From a virus (lineage: Duplodnaviria; Heunggongvirae; Uroviricota; Caudoviricetes), in the IMG/VR virus record IMGVR_UViG_2721755498_000006, positions 1 to 52,298 of that record: a DNA stretch of 52,298 bases; one strand, given 5' to 3'. Both the position numbers and the translations under genes were made by a program. The notes beneath the pieces are model-generated. The model did no database searches, had not been told where the DNA came from, and saw only the letters and a list, made by a program, of their open reading frames with translations. The number at the start of each line of letters is the position of its first letter. Position 1 is the first letter of the stretch. Shown here in pieces: positions 5,600 through 52,298 of the stretch.

Positions 5600-5872
5600 T
5601 CACTGGATAAAAAAAAGCCGGACAAACCGGCTTAGGATGCAAAATGAATCTAATAAGTGTGATTTACTCAACCACTCCTCATACTGGCTGGCAGTCCAGC
5701 CGAGTGTTCTCCCTTGAATTTTACGGGGCTCAGGAAAAACCCCCTCATTCACCCAACGCCAGAGAGTAGTACGGCTGACTGCCAGCAGCTCAATCATGTG
5801 GTTGATTCGAATCAATCGCTGGGGCTCATGGAAGAAACGGATATTGCTTGAAAAGGTGTTTTCTTGTTCCAT
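5600..5872 (-). CDS. alpA: AlpA-family HTH regulator (prophage/island excision regulator type)
   Basis: 90-aa ORF; core RLIRINHMIELLAVSRTTLWRWVNEGVFPEPRKIQGRTLGWTASQYEEWL matches the AlpA pattern. Confidence 0.65.
   Translation of the reverse strand: MEQENTFSSNIRFFHEPQRLIRINHMIELLAVSRTTLWRWVNEGVFPEPRKIQGRTLGWTASQYEEWLSKSHLLDSFCILSRFVRLFFIQ
5609..5632 (-). terminator. intrinsic terminator (AGCCGG-N5-CCGGCU followed by U8) lying inside the last codons of the alpA ORF
   Basis: hairpin plus U-run read on minus strand; ORF stop codon is ~7 nt beyond the U-run. Confidence 0.5.
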
Positions 5873-5993
5873 AAAGATTCCTTAAATCAGGAGTAACGAT
5901 ATGAAACAAGAGTAATTTTCTGATCGCGTGAGGTCGTGCATACCTTAGCAATGGAATCCGAATACCTTTACTATTTAGCTGATAAATATAACT

Positions 5994-6851
5994 TTATTTT
6001 TTACTCTTTTTCCGTTTTTCGTGTCCGGCAGTACGTAATGATTCGAATCCTTGAAAGGTTTCATCCTGAAGGATATTTCTTGTCTCGCGTAAATTTCGTT
6101 TGATAACCTCTGCGCTATGCGGAGGCTCCTTAATGGTAGGCCAGAAAAATGCCGCATACTTATAGAGCAGTTTTTCGAGATTACTGGCATTTGGCAGGCA
6201 ATGACCATAGCTATCAGGCTTGAGCTTACCCTCTGCATCCAGCTTGTAGAGTATAGCGATGACTGCCCGATAGACTTCTTCACGCATTGCAGCATAGGAC
6301 TCTCCTCGTGCTGCAGGTTCACGGGCAGCGGCTAGCAGCTTATCCCTCTCAACTTTCAGGCTCTCAATCTCCTCCTCAAGTTTTCTCACATAATCGCTGA
6401 CAGCAGGAGCTGGGGATTTTTCAATATCAATGCCCAGTACCCGGATAATATCGGCACGGCGCAGTGCGAACTGCTCCAGATCGGCTTCACCAAGGGGGTA
6501 TTTTTGTACTGAAGTGATCATCTCTTCGGGGCTGTCATAACGCCCGTTAGTCACCCTAAGCAATGCAGGAGTTAACTCTGGTCGTCCACTGGAATAATCA
6601 TACTTTGGTATAAATCCAAACTCTCGCCATGAGTCCTGAAGAGATTCACGTTTGTAAAGAGGAGGCTTATGTTCATTCAGGCATTTGAGTAGCTGAAGGC
6701 TGAGCACATTAAGCGATTGATCCGGGAATCGTTTTTGCAGTGCTATGTAAAGCTCGTAAATAGAAATAAACCCAGTATCCGCTTCTGCTACCTGGCGCTG
6801 CTTTTGTCTTTGCTGCTCAATAATCTCATCAAAACTCATTTTCAAACCCAT
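5994..6851 (-). CDS. hypothetical protein (predicted coiled-coil, Lys-rich C-terminus)
   Basis: ORF track 5994..6896; start moved to MGLKM preceded by GGAGAAG; no recognised motif. Confidence 0.4.
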   Translation of the reverse strand: MGLKMSFDEIIEQQRQKQRQVAEADTGFISIYELYIALQKRFPDQSLNVLSLQLLKCLNEHKPPLYKRESLQDSWREFGFIPKYDYSSGRPELTPALLRVTNGRYDSPEEMITSVQKYPLGEADLEQFALRRADIIRVLGIDIEKSPAPAVSDYVRKLEEEIESLKVERDKLLAAAREPAARGESYAAMREEVYRAVIAILYKLDAEGKLKPDSYGHCLPNASNLEKLLYKYAAFFWPTIKEPPHSAEVIKRNLRETRNILQDETFQGFESLRTAGHEKRKKSKK

Positions 6852-7077
6852 CAAACACTTCTCCGATACGGCGGCACATTCTGCAACACCATGCATTATA
6901 TAGGGATTTTATTCACGCGTTCGGGAATGAAACTACGATACTACCCAACTGATTGTCAGATGATTAGCGGAAAATGGTGGTTGGCTATGCCGTGTTAAAC
7001 AAGTACGCCAGTAAGTACGCGAAAAGAAATTCAGTAGATTTTATTGAAAGAGACTTGAGCTAACTTATTGATTTTAA

Positions 7078-10760: not shown

Positions 10761-11129
10761 GACCGGGACTCCCAATGCTTAAAATATCGGACAGTTCGGT
10801 GGGCACACAGAAACAAATTGGGTTTCAGACCATTAAACAGCCTGACTCAGCGCGACGGGAAAAATTGAGGTCGCTGACAACCGCTAAGGCTATCAGCAAA
10901 AAGGGATAGCCTTAGGAGTTGATCCTGGATGACAGGATAGTGAGCCAGTATCTACTGGGTGTGTCCAAGGCGAATGTCCTCTTAGAGTGATCGTGCGCGC
11001 ATGTTACGCCAGCAAAATTTTGCCGTCAACACGCAACAGAACACCACAGAACAATAGTTGAACTTCGCGCTTTTTGGTACTCGTCAAGGTCGCTAACAGG
11101 ATAAAAAAATCCCACATCCAGGACCTATA

Positions 11130-11417
11130 ATGGCGCATCAGCTACTCATTGGTAAAGGAATGATCACCTTGAATCTCAAACGGATTTTTCTCGCCCTCAC
11201 CTTACTTCCCTTGTTTGCTGTTGCCGCTGATGATTGCGCACTCTCAGATCCGACGCTGACCGTACAGGCGTATACCGTTAATCCTCAAACAGAGCGGGTG
11301 AAAATGTACTGGCAAAAAGCCAATGGCGAAGCGTGGGGAACGTTACATGCTCTGCTGGCGGATATTAATAGTCAGGGTCAGGTGCAGATGGCGATGAACG
11401 GCGGCATCTATGATGAA
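11130..11417 (+). pseudogene. 5' fragment of a signal-peptide protein gene (yigE-like by position upstream of corA) truncated by IS1
   Basis: ORF with signal-peptide-like N-terminus runs into IS1 copy 2; identification as yigE is inference from K-12 gene order. Confidence 0.45.
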
Positions 11418-11471
11418 GGGATGCTGCCAACTTACTGATTTAGTGTATGATGGTGTTTTTGAGGTGCTCCA

Positions 11472-11747
11472 GTGGCTTCTGTTTCTATCAGCTGTCCCTC
11501 CTGTTCAGCTACTGACGGGGTGGTGCGTAACGGCAAAAGCACCGCCGGACATCAGCGCTATCTCTGCTCTCACTGCCGTAAAACATGGCAACTGCAGTTC
11601 ACTTACACCGCTTCTCAACCCGGTACGCACCAGAAAATCATTGATATGGCCATGAATGGCGTTGGATGCCGGGCAACAGCCCGCATTATGGGCGTTGGCC
11701 TCAACACGATTTTACGTCACTTAAAAAACTCAGGCCGCAGTCGGTAA
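11472..11747 (+). CDS. insA: IS1 InsA
   Basis: identical translation to 9403..9678. Confidence 0.95.
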
Positions 11748-12169
11748 CCTCGCGCATACAGCCGGGCAGTGACGTCATCGTCTGCGCGGAAATGGACGAA
11801 CAGTGGGGATACGTCGGGGCTAAATCGCGCCAGCGCTGGCTGTTTTACGCGTATGACAGGCTCCGGAAGACGGTTGTTGCGCACGTATTCGGTGAACGCA
11901 CTATGGCGACGCTGGGGCGTCTTATGAGCCTGCTGTCACCCTTTGACGTGGTGATATGGATGACGGATGGCTGGCCGCTGTATGAATCCCGCCTGAAGGG
12001 AAAGCTGCACGTAATCAGCAAGCGATATACGCAGCGAATTGAGCGGCATAACCTGAATCTGAGGCAGCACCTGGCACGGCTGGGACGGAAGTCGCTGTCG
12101 TTCTCAAAATCGGTGGAGCTGCATGACAAAGTCATCGGGCATTATCTGAACATAAAACACTATCAATAA
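11666..12169 (+). CDS. insB: IS1 InsB
   Basis: identical translation to 8981..9484. Confidence 0.95.
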
Positions 12170-12302
12170 GTTGGAGTCATTACCCTCATTCCAAAAAGAA
12201 ACCTGCCACAATTTTGCCACACTCACAACGCGCAAAAATGCACATTTGTGTTAAGAAAAGCAAAACAACGCAACAGTAACCAGATGATTTTATTAGAAAA
12301 AA

Positions 12303-12348
12303 TGGTGCCGATAATAGGAGTCGAACCTACGACCTTCGCATTACGAAT
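12303..12348 (-). repeat. att copy: 46-nt direct repeat of the thrW 3' end
   Basis: tggtgccgataataggagtcgaacctacgaccttcgcattacgaat identical to 50855-50900; preceded at ~12200-12222 by TGCCACAATTTTGCCACA arm-type repeat. Confidence 0.9.
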
Positions 12349-12436
12349 CTGTAGCACCAATCATAACTATCTGTTTTAGCAAGCATTAACCGCATTCACC
12401 AAGCAATAGTTGATGGCACAAACAGAAAGTTGATGC

Positions 12437-12769
12437 ATGATGTTGTCATGTGTATGTCACAAATACGGCACAACGATCTTCAAACATGTAGCCACCCAGC
12501 ATAGAAGAGCACAAAGCCTTGCAATCAAGTGCAAAACTTTGTGTACCATAGTTTTTCCTTATCAACTACCGCAAGTATCGATCGATGGAGGCTTGGATGT
12601 TAAATTTCATGACTTTGATCACTTGGTGCATCACGAAACTATCGAAGTGCAACTCGCTCATGCCAACGGCGGATCTGTGCGTGGAATATACAACCATGCT
12701 CAGTATCTAGATAAGCGCAGAGAAATGATGCAGTGGTGGGCTGACTGGCTTGATGGAGAGAAAACATAG
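12437..12769 (+). pseudogene. integrase remnant: only the last ~55 codons resemble a P4-family tyrosine integrase C-terminus
   Basis: ...VQLAHANGGSVRGIYNHAQYLDKRREMMQWWADWLD typical integrase tail including catalytic Tyr; upstream part of ORF has no integrase features. Confidence 0.6.
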
Positions 12770-12964
12770 GACAGGTTTTCAGCCAGTGTCAGTGAAATGG
12801 ATCTCCTGTGCATGAGCAAATTAGAATAACATTGCATAGTCACAGTATCGATCATGATTCACAGCAATGATAGAATACAAATAATTTTAACATGTTTCTA
12901 CCGAAACAATCGCACCTGTAGCATTCGTCTTTTCTGATGTAATTAACATTAAATGGTATAGCAT

Positions 12965-14752
12965 ATGGAACTGAAATATAGACCCGAAATTGATGGGTTG
13001 AGAACATTAGCTGTTTTACCTGTTATCTTTTTTCATGCAGGCGTTCAATGGATTCCTGGAGGTTTTCTTGGAGTAGATGTTTTTTTTGTTATTAGTGGTT
13101 TTTTGATTACCAGCATTTTGCTAAAAGAATGCAGCAATGGAACATTTACATTCTCTGGATTTTATGAGAGAAGGGTTCGCAGAATTGCACCAGCATTAAT
13201 TTTAATGACATCAGTAACATTCATTATATCATTATTTGTGATGGTCCCATATGACCTAAAAAATCTTGGTCAATCAGTAGTTGCAACTATTTTTTCAGCA
13301 AACAATATATTGTTGTACCTAACATCAGGATACTGGTCTACAGCATCTGAATTTAAACCATTATATCACACATGGAGTCTGGCTGTAGAAGAACAGTATT
13401 ATCTTGTGGCACCTATAATAATATATATTATTTATTCAATTAATCATAATAAATTAATAAAAAATAGTTTTATATTCATGCTGTTAGTATCAATTGCCAG
13501 TTTTTTATTTGCAGCAATTGAGACAACACATAATAGAGAGTTTTCATTCCTCATGCTACCCTCTAGAGCCTGGGAGATCGCACTCGGCGGGATTGCTGCT
13601 ATTGCTCATTCGAAAATAAAAAGAAAAAGCAATGCATTATCATTCATTGGTTTTTTGTTAATAATATTTAGTTATTTTCTTGTTAGAGGAAAAATATCAC
13701 ACCCAGGACTCGAAACATTGATGCCAGTGATTGGCACATGTTTATTTTTGATGCATGCCAACTCACATAAAGGCGTAGGAAAGATAATGTCAATAAAACC
13801 AATGGTATTATGTGGTATGATAAGTTACTCATTATACCTTTGGCATCAGCCAGTTTTTGCATTTATAAGACTAAACTCTCAGTTCGAGCCATCAACAATA
13901 TATTTTATTGTTTCTATACCTTTTATTTTTATTATATCTTTTGCATCATATTTCTTTGTTGAGAAACCATTTAGAAACAAGAAAAAAACTTCTACAAAAA
14001 AGATTGTATCATACGCAATAGCATCGTCGTTAGTGTTATCAATATCTGGTTGGTTGATGCACAAGACATATGGATTGCAGAATATCAGGCCAGAGCTTGC
14101 CTATGGCGGCAATCCTCAGGAGTATGTGGACAGCCCTAAACGATTAAAGAATATTGACTTTTCAGATAATGGAAAGAAAATATTAATCATGGGTAATTCA
14201 TATGCGCGAGATATCATTAATGTAATATCTACTAAATTAAACCTTGATGATCTTAATATTGTTTATTTTGAAGGAAATTGCTACGAATCAATAAATAACT
14301 CTCACAAATTAGATTATTACTTGAAAGACGCAAACATTATTATTTACTCTGACAACTGGGGTGGGGAGGAGTATAATAACAGCGTAGAGAAATTAAAATA
14401 CTGCTACGATAACGTAAAGTTAGCATCCAACGCTAAGGTATACATGGTAGGGACAAAAAACTTTGGGTATAACAATAACTTTGCCACTAACTTATCTAAA
14501 AATGATCGAATCTTAGCGAAAACATACCCACTATCAAAGTATTTACAGTTCAATAATGATGCAAAATTAGAGTTAGGAAATGATTATATAGATGTATTTA
14601 GTCTTATTCAAGATGAGAATGGGATGGTTAATGTTTTTGATGGTGATGGTAAGTTTTTATCATATGATACCAATCACTTAACTAAATATGGGGCAAGTTA
14701 CTTAGGTGATATTTTATCAAAAAAAACAGATTTGTTTCATAGTTTAAAATAA
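12965..14752 (+). CDS. O-antigen acyltransferase (acyltransferase-3 membrane domain plus C-terminal SGNH-like domain; OafA/Oac type), lysogenic conversion gene
   Basis: 595-aa AT-rich ORF; N-terminus ...LRTLAVLPVIFFHAGVQ...GVDVFFVISGFLIT..., multiple TM segments, long C-terminal soluble domain; located between tailspike and att as P22 gtr / Sf6 oac. Confidence 0.8.
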   Translation: MELKYRPEIDGLRTLAVLPVIFFHAGVQWIPGGFLGVDVFFVISGFLITSILLKECSNGTFTFSGFYERRVRRIAPALILMTSVTFIISLFVMVPYDLKNLGQSVVATIFSANNILLYLTSGYWSTASEFKPLYHTWSLAVEEQYYLVAPIIIYIIYSINHNKLIKNSFIFMLLVSIASFLFAAIETTHNREFSFLMLPSRAWEIALGGIAAIAHSKIKRKSNALSFIGFLLIIFSYFLVRGKISHPGLETLMPVIGTCLFLMHANSHKGVGKIMSIKPMVLCGMISYSLYLWHQPVFAFIRLNSQFEPSTIYFIVSIPFIFIISFASYFFVEKPFRNKKKTSTKKIVSYAIASSLVLSISGWLMHKTYGLQNIRPELAYGGNPQEYVDSPKRLKNIDFSDNGKKILIMGNSYARDIINVISTKLNLDDLNIVYFEGNCYESINNSHKLDYYLKDANIIIYSDNWGGEEYNNSVEKLKYCYDNVKLASNAKVYMVGTKNFGYNNNFATNLSKNDRILAKTYPLSKYLQFNNDAKLELGNDYIDVFSLIQDENGMVNVFDGDGKFLSYDTNHLTKYGASYLGDILSKKTDLFHSLK

Positions 14753-14800
14753 CCACCCCCATTGGAGGTGGCGCTGAGGTATAATTATAATAATAGAATC

Positions 14801-16693
14801 CTAAGCCACCTCACCCCTCCATGAGCAATCAACAATACCTCCGCGCACCATCTTCCACCGCATGTTGTACGATGCCGAAGGAACAAGCTTTATACCAACA
14901 CCAAGATTGGGAACTGTTTCAACTGATTTAATCCAAGCGTTATTTGAATTACTGTACGTGAATGTTAATTGCTCTGTATTAGTGTAGAAGTCATCAGTGC
15001 ATGTTGTTATTGCCGCTGAAGTATTTGCGTTATCCGCCCCGTTATAATAATACAGCTCAAAGGCTATGTAGCCGTGGTTCTTCATCCTCGTAGCAAACAC
15101 GCCGCCCGTGTTTCTTGCCGCGATACCACCCTGTTTGAATGTGGTGTTACGCTCACCTTGCACGCTTCCCGCATTGATAGTCTGGAACGGAGTAACATCA
15201 GCAGAACTGTACTTGTCATTGTACAACTGCATAGCCCCGCCCATTTTATCTGTGTAAAACACATAAGATTCAAGGTGGTAAGGGGATTGGTTTTTAATGG
15301 TATTATACGATTTTATCTCGTTATAGAAATCGGTGTCATTTGTAATATCCTTAAAGGAACTTATGATTAGGTTACTTTCCCACGCAAAGGCTACATAGCT
15401 TCCATCACCCATACCAAAAAACTCCTTAGCAAAATTTATTTGCTTTGTTTTATCAGAGAAGCTTGTTGGTTCAGTGAACATTCCGAGACAAGGCACTATC
15501 TTTGAATTTGGGGATTTATATTGCATTTCAGCCCAGCACAGTACAGCGGTCCTCTTGTTTTCGGCAGAATCCCTAGAAGAGTATGCATATGCATCCACAA
15601 AAATCAAATCGTACCCAACACCGTTATACCCAGAAGGGACTGTTTGGTTATCAAACGAAAAAATCCCGTTGTCAGCTATACATAAAGCTTTACTGGTAAA
15701 TGCCTTGAATGCATTTATACGAGTGGCTTGAGCAGTTGCAGATACCGAATGGTTTTGCGGTTCATCAAACAAGTAATAGCCGATAACGCAATCTCTGCCG
15801 TCAAGGTCTGTAGCCGGGGTGTTTGTCTGCCCGTACACAGTACCACCAAGTATAAGTTTCAATCCAACAGCTTCCGCGGCGTTACAAGCTTTTTCCATAT
15901 TCCCGCCGTTTGTCCACGCTTGACCGTAGTGGATTAGTGTATTAAACCCCGCGGTTTTTAGTTGTAACATGTCACAAATATCAAACACGCGATGAACGTA
16001 TACAGCCTTCATTAGTGAATGGTCTACAGGTATTTCACTATCAAGTTCACATGGAACGTTTGGTAGTCTTGTGTATGTAATCGTTGCTTTTCCGGTAATC
16101 CTTGCACCTTGTGGCCAGTCAAAACTAGATAATGTCGTGGCACCGCTGATATGCGCAACCCCTGTTTTACCTATGGCTGCAAGAACATAAGGCTTAGCGT
16201 CCTCTCCACTACCATATATATATCCATACAAAGAAATATCAGACCAATTATAGCTAGAATTATACTTTATTGAGTCTATTTCTTCTTGTACTGTTTTACC
16301 AGTTGCGGTCCCTACAAGAGATGCCCCGTTATCTGAAGAGATAGTCTGCCTAAACTGATCCGGGTCATACTTAAGCACATTAGGAAAATAGAACTGCTGC
16401 GCCCCATACGCATCATAAACAGCCATAGAATGGCCTTGCACAGTTACGAACTTGGCAATCTGTCCGTTATATACCGGATATCCAGCGGCGTTAATGATGA
16501 TTGGTTGCGGAACAGGAACGTGAGAACCGTCTTCATTCTCTACATAAATCTGAATCTGGTTTTCAGGATTTACCGGGTCAGTGTCAATTTTTCCGATATA
16601 AATTTTGCCATTGGCTACGGCTTTAAAAGAACGCGCCATAGTGAAGAGTTGCGAAGGCATGCTTACCACAATATTTGCGGTGATATCTGACAT
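14801..16693 (-). CDS. tailspike protein: P22 gp9-like N-terminal head-binding domain fused to a different receptor-binding/enzymatic domain
   Basis: [59 protein letters not shown]... matches P22 tailspike N-terminus; remainder unlike P22 endorhamnosidase as I recall it; start set at internal Met with GGAG SD. Confidence 0.9.
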
Positions 16694-16814
16694 TTCATTG
16701 CTCCAGACGAATGATATGATGCAACCATGATGTGATTGCATACCGAAATGGTACTATTGAGTATTTATCCAGTAGGTTACGATGCCATTCCACCCAACTG
16801 GTGAGGCATCAAGG

Positions 16815-17075
16815 ATGTACAGCAAATACGACGAGGCGCAGTTTCACTTGAGACTTCCGCATGAACTCCACGCGAAAATTAAACAGCGCGCGAAGATGAA
16901 TAACAGGTCGCTGAACTCAGAGATAATTGCAGCGATTGAAGAATCATTGGCTAAACAAAGCTCTGCATCAGTTTACATTGACGATGCAGAGCGTATGGCA
17001 GAACAACAATCTGATATGGTTAAGAAAATTGTCTTTGATACGCTCAAGGAGCTATATAAAAAAGACAGCAGCTAA
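16815..17075 (+). CDS. mnt: Mnt-like ribbon-helix-helix repressor
   Basis: C-terminus NDAERMAEQQSDMVKKIVFDTLKELYKK resembles P22 Mnt; N-terminal RHH region. Confidence 0.75.
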   Translation: MYSKYDEAQFHLRLPHELHAKIKQRAKMNNRSLNSEIIAAIEESLAKQSSASVYIDDAERMAEQQSDMVKKIVFDTLKELYKKDSS

Positions 17076-33063: not shown

Positions 33064-33139
33064 TGGTGCTGGTTAACGGACTTGAACCGCTACCCATTCG
33101 CTTACAAGGCGACTGCTCTACCATTGGAGCTAAACCAGC
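33064..33139 (-). tRNA. tRNA-Thr (anticodon UGU) in the Q-S interval
   Basis: hand-folded cloverleaf: 7-bp acceptor GCUGGUU/AACCAGC, D-stem GCUC/GAGC, T-loop UUCAAGU, anticodon loop CUUGUAA, 3' CCA encoded. Confidence 0.75.
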
Positions 33140-33144
33140 ATATT

Positions 33145-33219
33145 TGGCGGGACAGCGTGGACTCGAACCACGATAAGAAGGTTAACAGCCTTCCGTAATG
33201 ACCTTTATACGACTGACCC
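33145..33219 (-). tRNA. tRNA-Asn (anticodon GUU)-like, slightly imperfect acceptor and D stems
   Basis: anticodon stem GAAGG/CCUUC, loop CUGUUAA, T-arm CGUGG-UUCGAGU-CCACG, CCA encoded; one U-U mismatch in acceptor stem. Confidence 0.55.
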
Positions 33220-49455: not shown

Positions 49456-49803
49456 GTGGAAGAAGAAATCTTCACTCGTGAAGAGGCAGCATCGTATCTG
49501 AAGGTAGACAAAGGCACTATCACGCAGTGGATACGAAGTGGACGACTTCAGGCCGCAAAGATAAATCCAGATAAACCTAAAAGCCCATATCGTATTTGCA
49601 AGTCAGACTGCATTGCGGCGCTTAAGTCTGTGAGACACAATAGCGCGGTGAATGCGGTTGATGTGCAGGAGGTTAAAGCATGTCAATCAAACTACGCGGT
49701 GGCACGTGGCACTGCGATTTCGTCGCGCCAGATGGATCAAGAGTTAGACGCTCTCTTGAAACATCGGACAAAAGGCAAGCGCAAGAACTTCACGATCGTC
49801 TGA
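49456..49803 (+). CDS. xis: excisionase (P22 Xis-like, HTH)
   Basis: 115 aa; MEEEIFTREEAASYLKVDKGTITQWIRSGRL HTH; overlaps int start by ~124 nt. Confidence 0.7.
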   Translation: MEEEIFTREEAASYLKVDKGTITQWIRSGRLQAAKINPDKPKSPYRICKSDCIAALKSVRHNSAVNAVDVQEVKACQSNYAVARGTAISSRQMDQELDALLKHRTKGKRKNFTIV

Positions 49804-50840
49804 AAGCAGAAGCGTGGAGAGTAAAAAATCTCGGGGAATCACCGAAAAAGCTATTCAAGGAAGCCTGCATACGGTGGCTTCGTGAGAAATCGGATAAGAA
49901 GTCCATTGATGATGACAAGAGCATTATATCGTTCTGGATGTTGCACTTCAGAGAAACCATTCTCTCAGACATAACAACAGAAAAAATAATGGAGGCGGTA
50001 GACGGGATGGAAAACCGCCGCCATCGCCTGAACTGGGAAATGAGCCGGGACAGGTGTTTGCGGCTTGGCAAGCCAGTGCCGGAGTATAAACCAAAGCTGG
50101 CAAGCAAAGGAACGAAGACGCGGCATCTGGCAATACTTCGCGCTATTCTCAATATGGCTGTTGAATGGGGATGGCTTGACAGGGCGCCCAAAATATCAAC
50201 ACCACGCGTTAAGAATGGACGAATCAGATGGCTTACAGAGGAGGAATCGAAGCGCCTGTTTGCAGAAATTGCTCCTCATTTCTTCCCTGTGGTCATGTTT
50301 GCAATCACGACAGGCCTTCGCCGTTCCAACGTTACAGACCTTGAGTGGTCACAGGTCGATCTGGATAAGAAAATGGCATGGATGCACCCTGATGAAACAA
50401 AAGCTGGCAATGCGATCGGAGTTCCTCTTAACGAAACCGCATGCCAGATATTAAGAAAACAGCAGGGGCTCCATAAGAGATGGGTATTTGTCCACACCAA
50501 ACCTGCCTACCGAAGCGACGGAACAAAAACAGCAGCGGTAAGGAAGATGAGAACCGACAGCAACAAGGCATGGAAGGGAGCGTTAAAGCGGGCAGGCATT
50601 AGCAACTTCCGCTTCCATGACCTGAGGCATACCTGGGCAAGCTGGCTGGTTCAGTCCGGTGTCTCTCTTCTTGCGCTTAAAGAGATGGGAGGATGGGAAA
50701 CTCTCGAAATGGTTCAAAGATACGCCCACCTTTCAGCCGGGCATCTCACCGAGCACGCGAGCAAAATCGATGCGATTATAAGTCGCAATGGCACAAATAC
50801 GGCACAAGAGGAGAACGTAGTTTACTTAAATGCGAGGTAA
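49680..50840 (+). CDS. int: tyrosine integrase (P22 Int-like), thrW-specific
   Basis: 386 aa; N-terminus like P22 Int; R..HxxR..Y (RRSNV, HDLRHTWAS, QRYAH); stop 14 nt from tRNA 3' end. Confidence 0.95.
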   Translation: MSIKLRGGTWHCDFVAPDGSRVRRSLETSDKRQAQELHDRLKAEAWRVKNLGESPKKLFKEACIRWLREKSDKKSIDDDKSIISFWMLHFRETILSDITTEKIMEAVDGMENRRHRLNWEMSRDRCLRLGKPVPEYKPKLASKGTKTRHLAILRAILNMAVEWGWLDRAPKISTPRVKNGRIRWLTEEESKRLFAEIAPHFFPVVMFAITTGLRRSNVTDLEWSQVDLDKKMAWMHPDETKAGNAIGVPLNETACQILRKQQGLHKRWVFVHTKPAYRSDGTKTAAVRKMRTDSNKAWKGALKRAGISNFRFHDLRHTWASWLVQSGVSLLALKEMGGWETLEMVQRYAHLSAGHLTEHASKIDAIISRNGTNTAQEENVVYLNAR

Positions 50841-50854
50841 CTTATTGATTTAAA

Positions 50855-50930
50855 TGGTGCCGATAATAGGAGTCGAACCTACGACCTTCGCATTACGAAT
50901 GCGCTGCTCTACCAACTGAGCTATATCGGC
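50855..50930 (-). tRNA. thrW: tRNA-Thr (anticodon CGU), intact; attR-side att site
   Basis: GCCGATATAGCTCAGTTGGTAGAGCAGCGCATTCGTAATGCGAAGGTCGTAGGTTCGACTCCTATTATCGGCACCA on minus strand. Confidence 0.95.
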
Positions 50931-51044: not shown

Positions 51045-52298
51045 TTACGCACGAATGGTGTAATCACCAATGCCGATCCACTTGTAAGTGGTCAGTGCTT
51101 CCAGCCCCATTGGGCCACGCGCGTGGAGTTTTTGTGTGCTTACCGCCACTTCCGCACCCAGACCAAACTGGCCGCCGTCGGTAAAACGCGTAGAGGCGTT
51201 AACGTAAACAGCGGACGAATCCACTTCGTTAACAAAACGCTGGGCGTTGCGCATATCGCGGGTCAGGATCGCATCGGAGTGTTGTGTGCCGTGTTCACGA
51301 ATATGGGCGATGGCATCGTCAATATCGCTGACGATTTTGACGTTCAAATCTAATGACAGAAACTCATCGTCATACTCTTCGGCTTTAACAGCAACCACCT
51401 TCGCAGGGCCTGCCTGCAACTGCGCCAGTGCAGCTGCATCTGCGTGTAATGTCACGCCGCTTTCCGCCATTTGTTTGCTTAATGCGGGCAGGAAGCTATC
51501 GGCGATGTTTTTATTCACCAGCAACGTTTCAACCGTATTACATGTGCTCGGACGCTGAGTTTTCGCGTTGACGATCACTTTTAATGCTTCAGCGATCTCT
51601 ACACTTTCATCAACGTAAATATGGCATACGCCTATACCACCTGTGATCACCGGGATTGTCGACTGTTCACGGCACAGTTTATGCAAACCAGCGCCACCAC
51701 GCGGGATCAGCATGTCGATGTATTTATCCATACGCAGCATTTCACTGACCAGCGCACGGTCAGGATTATCAATCGCCTGCACGGCACCCGCCGGTAAGCC
51801 GCAGGATTTCAGGGCGTCCTGAATCACCGCCACCGTTGCAGCGTTAGTGCGACACGTTTCTTTGCCACCGCGCAGGATCACCGCATTACCGGTTTTCAGG
51901 CACAGCGAAGCGACATCAACCGTCACGTTCGGGCGCGCTTCATAAATCACGCCAATAACCCCCAGCGGTACGCGACGACGCTCAAGACGCAGGCCGCTGT
52001 CCAGTACGCCGCCATCGATTACCTGCCCCACCGGATCGGCGAGGTTGCACACCTGACGTACATCGTCGGCAATGCCTTTCAGCCGTGCGGGCGTCAGTGC
52101 CAGACGGTCAAGCATCGCTTCGCTAAGGCCATTGGCTCGCGCGTCAGCAACATCCTGGGCGTTAGCGTTGAGGATGATTTCGCTTTGTGCTTCCAGTTCA
52201 TCGGCGATTTTTTCCAGCACGCGATTTTTTTCGCGGCTGGAGAGTTGCGCTAATTTATACGAGGCTTGCTTCGCGGCAATGCCCATTTGTTTCAGCAT
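51045..52298 (-). CDS. proA: gamma-glutamyl phosphate reductase
   Basis: 417 aa beginning [38 protein letters not shown]; start codon is the last 3 nt of the window. Confidence 0.95.

Follow-up and report, generated by a model that had tools for sequence, protein, structure and literature searches.

An argW-type integrase stub and a putative O-antigen acyltransferase cassette at one end of a thrW-integrated P22-like prophage

The prophage end described here lies in a 52,298-nucleotide stretch of Caudoviricetes DNA (IMG/VR record IMGVR_UViG_2721755498_000006, positions 1 to 52,298), which we call the window throughout. The window holds a P22-like prophage of ~38.5 kb integrated at thrW, and its conversion region sits at the end far from the working integrase. 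Here an att copy, the remnant of an integrase gene, an acyltransferase gene and a convergent tailspike gene follow one another in the order given by the original prediction, a reading of the sequence alone whose feature edges are corrected in Table 1. We hold it very probable that two separate things are joined in this region, the old scar of a module swap and a 2.1-kb lysogenic-conversion cassette. As a whole, the region is an ordinary lysogenic-conversion cassette on the pattern of phages Sf6 and BTP1, moved between phages of different integration sites.

The integrase stub and the acyltransferase gene

The integrase remnant occupies the end, and only the end, of a mechanical open reading frame (ORF) of 110 aa at 12437-12769. 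Aligned by BLASTP with full-length IntS, this ORF scores 46/58 identities (E 1e-31); the final residues, encoded by 12641-12766 ahead of a stop codon at 12767-12769, match the IntS C-terminus at 42 of 42 positions. DNA homology to intS starts at 12639-12641, and alignment to full-length integrases places the deletion end-point at 12641; tblastn returned no significant integrase-like sequence upstream of this position. A box reading 'HDFDH' just upstream of the stub was rejected as part of the remnant, since it aligns only with a 5-residue gap and tblastn was null. The stub amounts to 11% of IntS, lacking both the arm-binding and the core-binding domain as well as most of the catalytic one, and retains the LAH histidine (the second conserved His) and the tyrosine context 'GIYNHA', in which the nucleophile is recognized by the established Y-x-H motif of tyrosine recombinases. 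A remnant with its tyrosine context and without an N-terminus had been predicted correctly, at a length of ~55 codons that shrinks to 42. No Pfam domain is found in the 110-aa ORF, which does not have the complete R-K-H-R-H-Y set and full domains of a functional tyrosine integrase; the stub is a pseudogene, non-functional as an integrase. PGAP likewise calls the same stretch an integrase pseudogene missing its N-terminus in Escherichia coli HS, AZ147, TST3 and ZF8-1.

Full-length IntS carries PF13356, PF22022 and PF00589, the P4-like domain set, in keeping with the P4-family character first proposed for the remnant; the IntS used for comparison has a central domain identical to the solved CPS-53 integrase fragment 2kj8. 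The argW-specific integrases include IntS of E. coli K-12 (CPS-53/KplE1) and those of Sf6, HK620, CUS-3 and Kapi1, and the stub is exactly IntS residues 344-385. Its DNA is 92-94% identical to the int 3' end of Sf6 (92.6%), CUS-3 and other phages. The stub part of a junction query, described below, was matched in 1614 complete E. coli genomes, those listed lying within annotated intS, and full-length intS stood beside argW in every context retrieved. Compared with the P4-like integrase that the E. coli HS thrW island encodes, the stub reaches an identity of only 47%. Given the 42/42 match to IntS against this 47%, the stub derives from an argW-targeting integrase of the Sf6/CPS-53 type, not from a thrW-targeting one, and the earlier attribution of the footprint to another thrW-targeting element is not supported. 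What sets the stub apart from the argW integrases is its fusion to an att arm of thrW type.

The acyltransferase gene has a GC content of 0.28-0.36, against ~0.43-0.55 in its flanks, and a hidden Markov model search returned PF01757 (E 1.5e-27) and PF19040, an SGNH domain fused to AT3 (E 1.5e-9), as anticipated for an AT-rich AT3 + SGNH gene. Across 26 homologues at 38-82% identity, R13, H24, G32/G33/G36/V37/D38, S44/G45, R70/R72/R73, E142, E333, S412, D568 and H571 are invariant, giving the motifs R13-x10-H24, G32GFLGVD38, FFVISG, R70xxR73, E333, G410-N-S412 and D568xxH571. The SGNH triad is present, with S412 in GNS and D568 and H571 in DTNH. Mutation of R/K-x10-H, GG-F/Y-xGV-D, FFxISG, RxxR, the Glu after transmembrane helix 10 or the triad abolishes or reduces activity in OafA (PMC7448272), and the invariant residues would correspond to these essential positions, an equivalence drawn from the motifs and not from a direct OafA alignment. 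OafA and OafB have the same two-domain architecture and share R-x10-H, GG-F-xGV-D, RxxR, the Glu after transmembrane helix 10 and the Ser/Asp/His triad, and the SGNH domain of OafB is the best structural match of the window enzyme. With PF01757, PF19040 and its SGNH fold, the AT3 essential residues and the triad, the protein belongs to the AT3-SGNH enzymes of the OafA/OafB type, by analogy with which it is likely an O-antigen O-acetyltransferase. Its role in a conversion module is supported by architecture, residues, fold and synteny.

Relatives are few. The nearest outside E. coli prophages are metagenomic proteins at 61-63% and an Acinetobacter prophage gene at 49%; a scan of species-representative genomes returned only the 49% relative, in Acinetobacter sp. 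Ver3, and IMG/VR only an 82% variant and the Acinetobacter prophage. NCBIfam gave only a far-below-cutoff SucT match, and a literature search found no description of the stub or of the acyltransferase.

The last ~150 bp of the leader before the acyltransferase (12815-12964) are 97-100% conserved between cassette variants, against ~83% for the coding DNA, which suggests a constrained promoter or 5' untranslated region, or a recombination linker. The conserved part holds a single GATC, the gtr-like Dam/OxyR phase-variation signature having been sought, and no Rfam RNA family was found in 12000-15200. A terminator-like hairpin sits between the convergent genes, at the end of the tailspike/late transcript on the minus strand and after the acyltransferase stop codon on the plus strand. 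The receptor-binding part of the tailspike is predicted, by modelling, to be a clan GH-A TIM-barrel glycosidase with a beta-sandwich; a literature search gave no description of the receptor of phage PE3-1. An ORF for a 97-aa Arc/Mnt-type repressor (16782-17075) lies beside the tailspike, an immI-like region as in P22.

Table 1. Features of the conversion region and of the opposite end of the prophage, in window coordinates
Feature	Position	Strand	Description
Left att copy	12300-12348	minus	49 bp: last 46 nt of thrW (3' end) and 3 nt more; identical to 50852-50900
Far arm of thrW-type attP	12349-12640		Side away from int; from similarity to attP regions
IntS-type (argW-targeting, P4-like) integrase 3' stub	12641-12769	plus	42 codons and stop; IntS residues 344-385
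AT-rich leader	12770-12964	plus	Promoter-like TTCACA-16-AATAAT at 12858-12885; overlapping TGaTAGAAT at 12868-12876
AT3 + SGNH acyltransferase ORF	12965-14752	plus	Intact, 595 aa, membrane-bound
GC-rich, terminator-like hairpin	14752-14772	minus	9-bp stem then T-run (terminator scan)
Tailspike	14801-16693	minus	P22 head-binding domain, E 7.8e-67; convergent with acyltransferase
xis-like ORF	49456-49803		From the ORF list
Working integrase of the prophage, P22-type	49680-50840	plus	Pfam PF00589, E 9e-35; abuts thrW
Intact thrW, tRNA-Thr(cgt)	50855-50930	minus	tRNA scan
proA	51045-52298	minus	Adjoins thrW at right end of window

The slot and the cassette in other phages and genomes

The location had been taken for a serotype-conversion slot, and annotated records bear this out, Sf6 oac and BTP1 gtrC occupying the same one. 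In Sf6, attP, int (gene 16), oac (gene 15) and the tailspike (gene 14) have the order and orientation seen in the window, and the two have in common the int 3' end, a leader with a promoter (annotated in Sf6, putative in the window), an AT3 acyltransferase, a terminator (likewise) and a convergent tailspike, together with P22-like virion genes; the Sf6 record annotates an oac promoter and terminator at positions equivalent to the window leader and hairpin. The leaders themselves are not homologous. Sf6 Oac is AT3-only (a 1002-bp gene, no SGNH domain), whereas the window enzyme is AT3 + SGNH; the int gene body and argW attP of Sf6 are replaced in the window by a thrW-type integration module; and the Sf6 tailspike, a solved endorhamnosidase, has no detectable similarity to the window tailspike beyond the head-binding domain. 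According to the Kapi1 preprint, the Kapi1, Sf6, HK620 and KplE1 prophages are ordered argW-int-cargo-tailspike, with attP upstream of int. As in the Sf6-type slot, the conversion gene of the window lies between an integration module and a convergent tailspike. A gtrABC cluster of the P22 and SfX type is not seen, only AT3 + SGNH domains being found between 12349 and 14800, where the ORFs listed besides the acyltransferase are of 30-59 aa, alongside the 110-aa mechanical ORF with the stub at its end.

BTP1 integrates at thrW and has the same vegetative order (xis-int-attP-...-gtrC-tailspike). Its GtrC/OafB is 31% identical to the window enzyme over 632 aligned columns (BLASTP, E 9e-81), with GDS and DWGH aligned to GNS and DTNH, so that block I of the window enzyme reads GNS, not GDS; the window enzyme is 45 residues shorter than this family II GtrC. 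Upstream of the conversion gene, BTP1 carries a gtrA remnant where the window has the integrase stub.

The junction between thrW arm and stub was sought with a 241-nt probe across it and found in 38 of 5426 complete E. coli genomes. HS and AZ147 have an identical left junction. Behind it, HS carries three small hypothetical genes and then the tailspike, ZF8-1 has nothing between stub and tailspike, and AZ147 and 2018-05-5CC carry myovirus-type tail genes. Because the same junction recurs in 38 genomes with varied cargo or none, the scar is older than the cargo, and the stub therefore did not simply arrive with the acyltransferase. The junction is one old module-swap scar travelling with the thrW integration module, and the slot behind it is a cargo hot-spot. 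E. coli TST3 also has a thrW prophage with this scar, followed by an AT3-only acyltransferase of 364 aa (5783-6877 of the retrieved locus) before the tailspike; the left flank of that prophage is IS1 as well.

The usual surroundings of the cassette are different. Only one of the 5426 complete E. coli genomes has its acyltransferase gene, which there immediately follows a full intS beside argW. The identical protein is encoded on 21 public contigs, and all eight of the eight displayed read yfdC-(argW)-intS-acyltransferase-tailspike. Among the assemblies with the cassette are GCA_018290195.1, GCA_030711395.1, GCA_904799835.1 and NZ_CP148423.1. The same Sf6 layout is found on 8/8 displayed contigs of the 82% variant, which is a full-length 595-aa ORF wherever retrieved and has a different tailspike as its partner, one that joins the head-binding domain to Peptidase_S74. 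Between about 12715 and about 14813, the cassette DNA of the window is ~100% identical to the argW copies; the receptor-binding DNA of the tailspike is 61-79% identical to them and the head-binding domain is back to 95-99%, the tailspike proteins being 83% identical. Over 12612-12708 the window has the HS scar allele, with 5-6 differences from argW alleles, and from ~12715 on it departs from the HS allele and tracks the cassette-bearing loci, differing from the argW loci at 2-3 positions as far as 12830. The window copy looks recombinant within the stub, with a left crossover step that we infer from few sites.

A third setting is provided by GCA_904799835.1 (9730-10330 of the retrieved locus), where the acyltransferase, differing at one amino acid, and a tailspike (P0121) of 99% identity belong to a prophage at the lambda-type att locus and are followed by ybhB-bioA-bioB. 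The stub there is shorter, at ~27 codons, with intS homology starting at the equivalent of window position ~12687, and the DNA before it matches lambda-type phage att regions and the attR of a bio-transducing phage. Since the cassette stands behind full intS and behind two different stubs, a position downstream of intS is taken as ancestral. The three contexts, namely full intS, a 42-codon stub with a thrW arm and a ~27-codon stub with a lambda-type arm, support two independent replacements of the integration module.

Attachment sites and flanks of the prophage

The left att copy is the bacterial half-site left behind by integration and marks the left end of the prophage. The segment 12300-12555 has 93-95% identity with attP regions, namely those of the lambdoid phages HK446, mEpX2, HK542, mEp213 and HK75, all annotated as thrW/CP4-6-type, and of SfX, where the matching region comes after xis-int. 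With the stub junction included, 12300-12755 shows ~97% identity with the ends of prophages in E. coli HS, AZ147 and other genomes; 12556-12640 is common only to scar-bearing prophages, the SfX record matching as far as 12585. The 16-mer CACAAATACGGCACAA occurs exactly twice in the 52-kb window, at 12458-12473 and 50792-50807, in the same orientation. The left copy is ~110 nt inside the left att arm, with shorter GGCACAA copies nearby at 12415 and 12467, and the right copy falls in the int 3' end, 45-60 nt ahead of the right att core. Lying on both sides of the core, these copies are candidate arm-type Int-binding sites of a thrW-type attP.

To the left of the att copy are IS1 (ORFs 11472-12169), a truncated yigE and corA, in DNA that is island-like and cut by IS1. 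Within 10900-12300, IS1 interrupts yigE beside corA, and its other side joins DNA normally found beyond the thrW att copy, which implies that an IS1-mediated rearrangement fused corA/yigE DNA with the thrW/proA region; ~174 complete E. coli genomes share the yigE::IS1 junction. Inside the prophage, genes for tRNA-Thr(tgt) and tRNA-Asn(gtt) lie on the minus strand at 33064-33219.

A model of module exchange and conversion

We propose a model where an Sf6-like ancestor was ordered attP(argW)-intS-cargo-tailspike, and an xis-int-attP module of thrW/P22 specificity displaced the argW attP together with ~89% of intS. The outcome would be a thrW-type attP arm joined to the final 42 codons of intS, and the stub and the tailspike 3' end would then form a homology patch shared with intS-carrying phages. 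The cassette, made up of leader with putative promoter, AT3-SGNH acyltransferase and terminator-like hairpin, has its usual home directly after full-length intS in argW-integrated P22-like prophages. It was most likely gained when a scar-bearing thrW phage and a cassette donor underwent homologous recombination, the left crossover lying probably inside the stub (about 12689-12750) and the right edge probably in the last tailspike codons (about 14813-14834).

The analysis shows anatomy, homology, conserved residues, fold and genomic contexts; we infer the acetyl donor, the acceptor, expression and exclusion. By analogy with OafA and OafB, the acyltransferase may be expressed from the prophage through its own leader. 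The AT3 domain, of ten to eleven helices, would take acetyl from acetyl-CoA in the cytoplasm and move it through the inner membrane, and on the periplasmic side the SGNH domain (Ser412, Asp568, His571) would pass it to an O-antigen sugar. Sf6 and BTP1 each block their own tailspike through acetylation, by Oac and OafB respectively (PMC9558356), and it is reasonable to suppose that the window enzyme similarly modifies the O-antigen recognised by the adjacent tailspike. Such a modification would alter serotype and probably block both cleavage and adsorption by the phage's own glycosidase tailspike, leading to superinfection exclusion. It is tempting to speculate further, although we consider this rather doubtful, that the stub and the conserved tailspike 3' end act as a standing recombination linker, moving the cassette and a matched TIM-barrel tailspike among P22-like phages of at least three integration specificities (argW, thrW and lambda-type att), and that enzyme and tailspike form an uncharacterised receptor/anti-receptor pair on an E. 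coli O-antigen for whose acetylation no genetic basis is known.

Several observations weigh against the proposed model. The thrW arrangement with the cassette was not found in any other record. Informative sites for the crossover are few and scar alleles vary, the TST3 stub having argW-like bases. Known phage O-antigen acetylases are only 30-37% identical to the acyltransferase, which on this ground forms a clade separate from the studied enzymes, and a sequence search returned no relative of solved structure. Promoter-like matches to consensus are no commoner in the region than in shuffled sequence. Lastly, in the sole complete E. coli genome with the cassette, codon 515 is changed from CGA to TGA, a premature stop that removes the DxxH (Asp/His) block; because of this nonsense change, the gene is dispensable in at least one host.

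The last of these points speaks for a reading in which the cassette is a decaying passenger, unexpressed or useless in this host and of no phenotype, as do the rarity of the gene and a promoter known as a consensus match only. The window allele, however, is full length with every catalytic residue present, as are the 82% variants in length, the identical protein recurs across the 21 contigs, and the leader is better conserved than the coding sequence, so that we regard decay as very unlikely. Somewhat less remote, while still unlikely in our judgement, is an active acyltransferase that serves another envelope polymer (capsule/K antigen, enterobacterial common antigen, colanic acid or peptidoglycan) or transfers a non-acetyl acyl group.

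The origin of the stub has an alternative of its own, that a different thrW-targeting element, such as a CP4-6-like island, left the tail of its P4-like integrase here and was also the source or recombination partner of the acyltransferase module. Tandem elements do occur at thrW, HS and ZF8-1 carrying a complete 402-aa P4-like integrase immediately past the left att copy, and the island-like, IS1-cut DNA left of the att copy in the window would fit. Yet the island integrase is 47% identical to the stub where IntS is 100% identical, relative to the att copy the stub is on the phage side, pointing away, and every full-length close relative is beside argW; we give this alternative almost no credence. 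The preferred history, an argW-derived scar later filled by a conversion cassette, is one of module exchange that is neat but unsurprising, and the region otherwise follows the Sf6/BTP1 pattern and opens no new question.

Prophage-borne O-antigen acetylases alter serotype, vaccine epitopes and phage susceptibility. The enzyme described here comes from an uncharacterised clade and shares at most 37% identity with the phage enzymes studied so far; it is rare among E. coli and stands beside an unusual predicted TIM-barrel glycosidase tailspike. Its three integration contexts offer a clean, datable case of conversion cassettes passed between temperate phages via short shared 'boundary' sequences.

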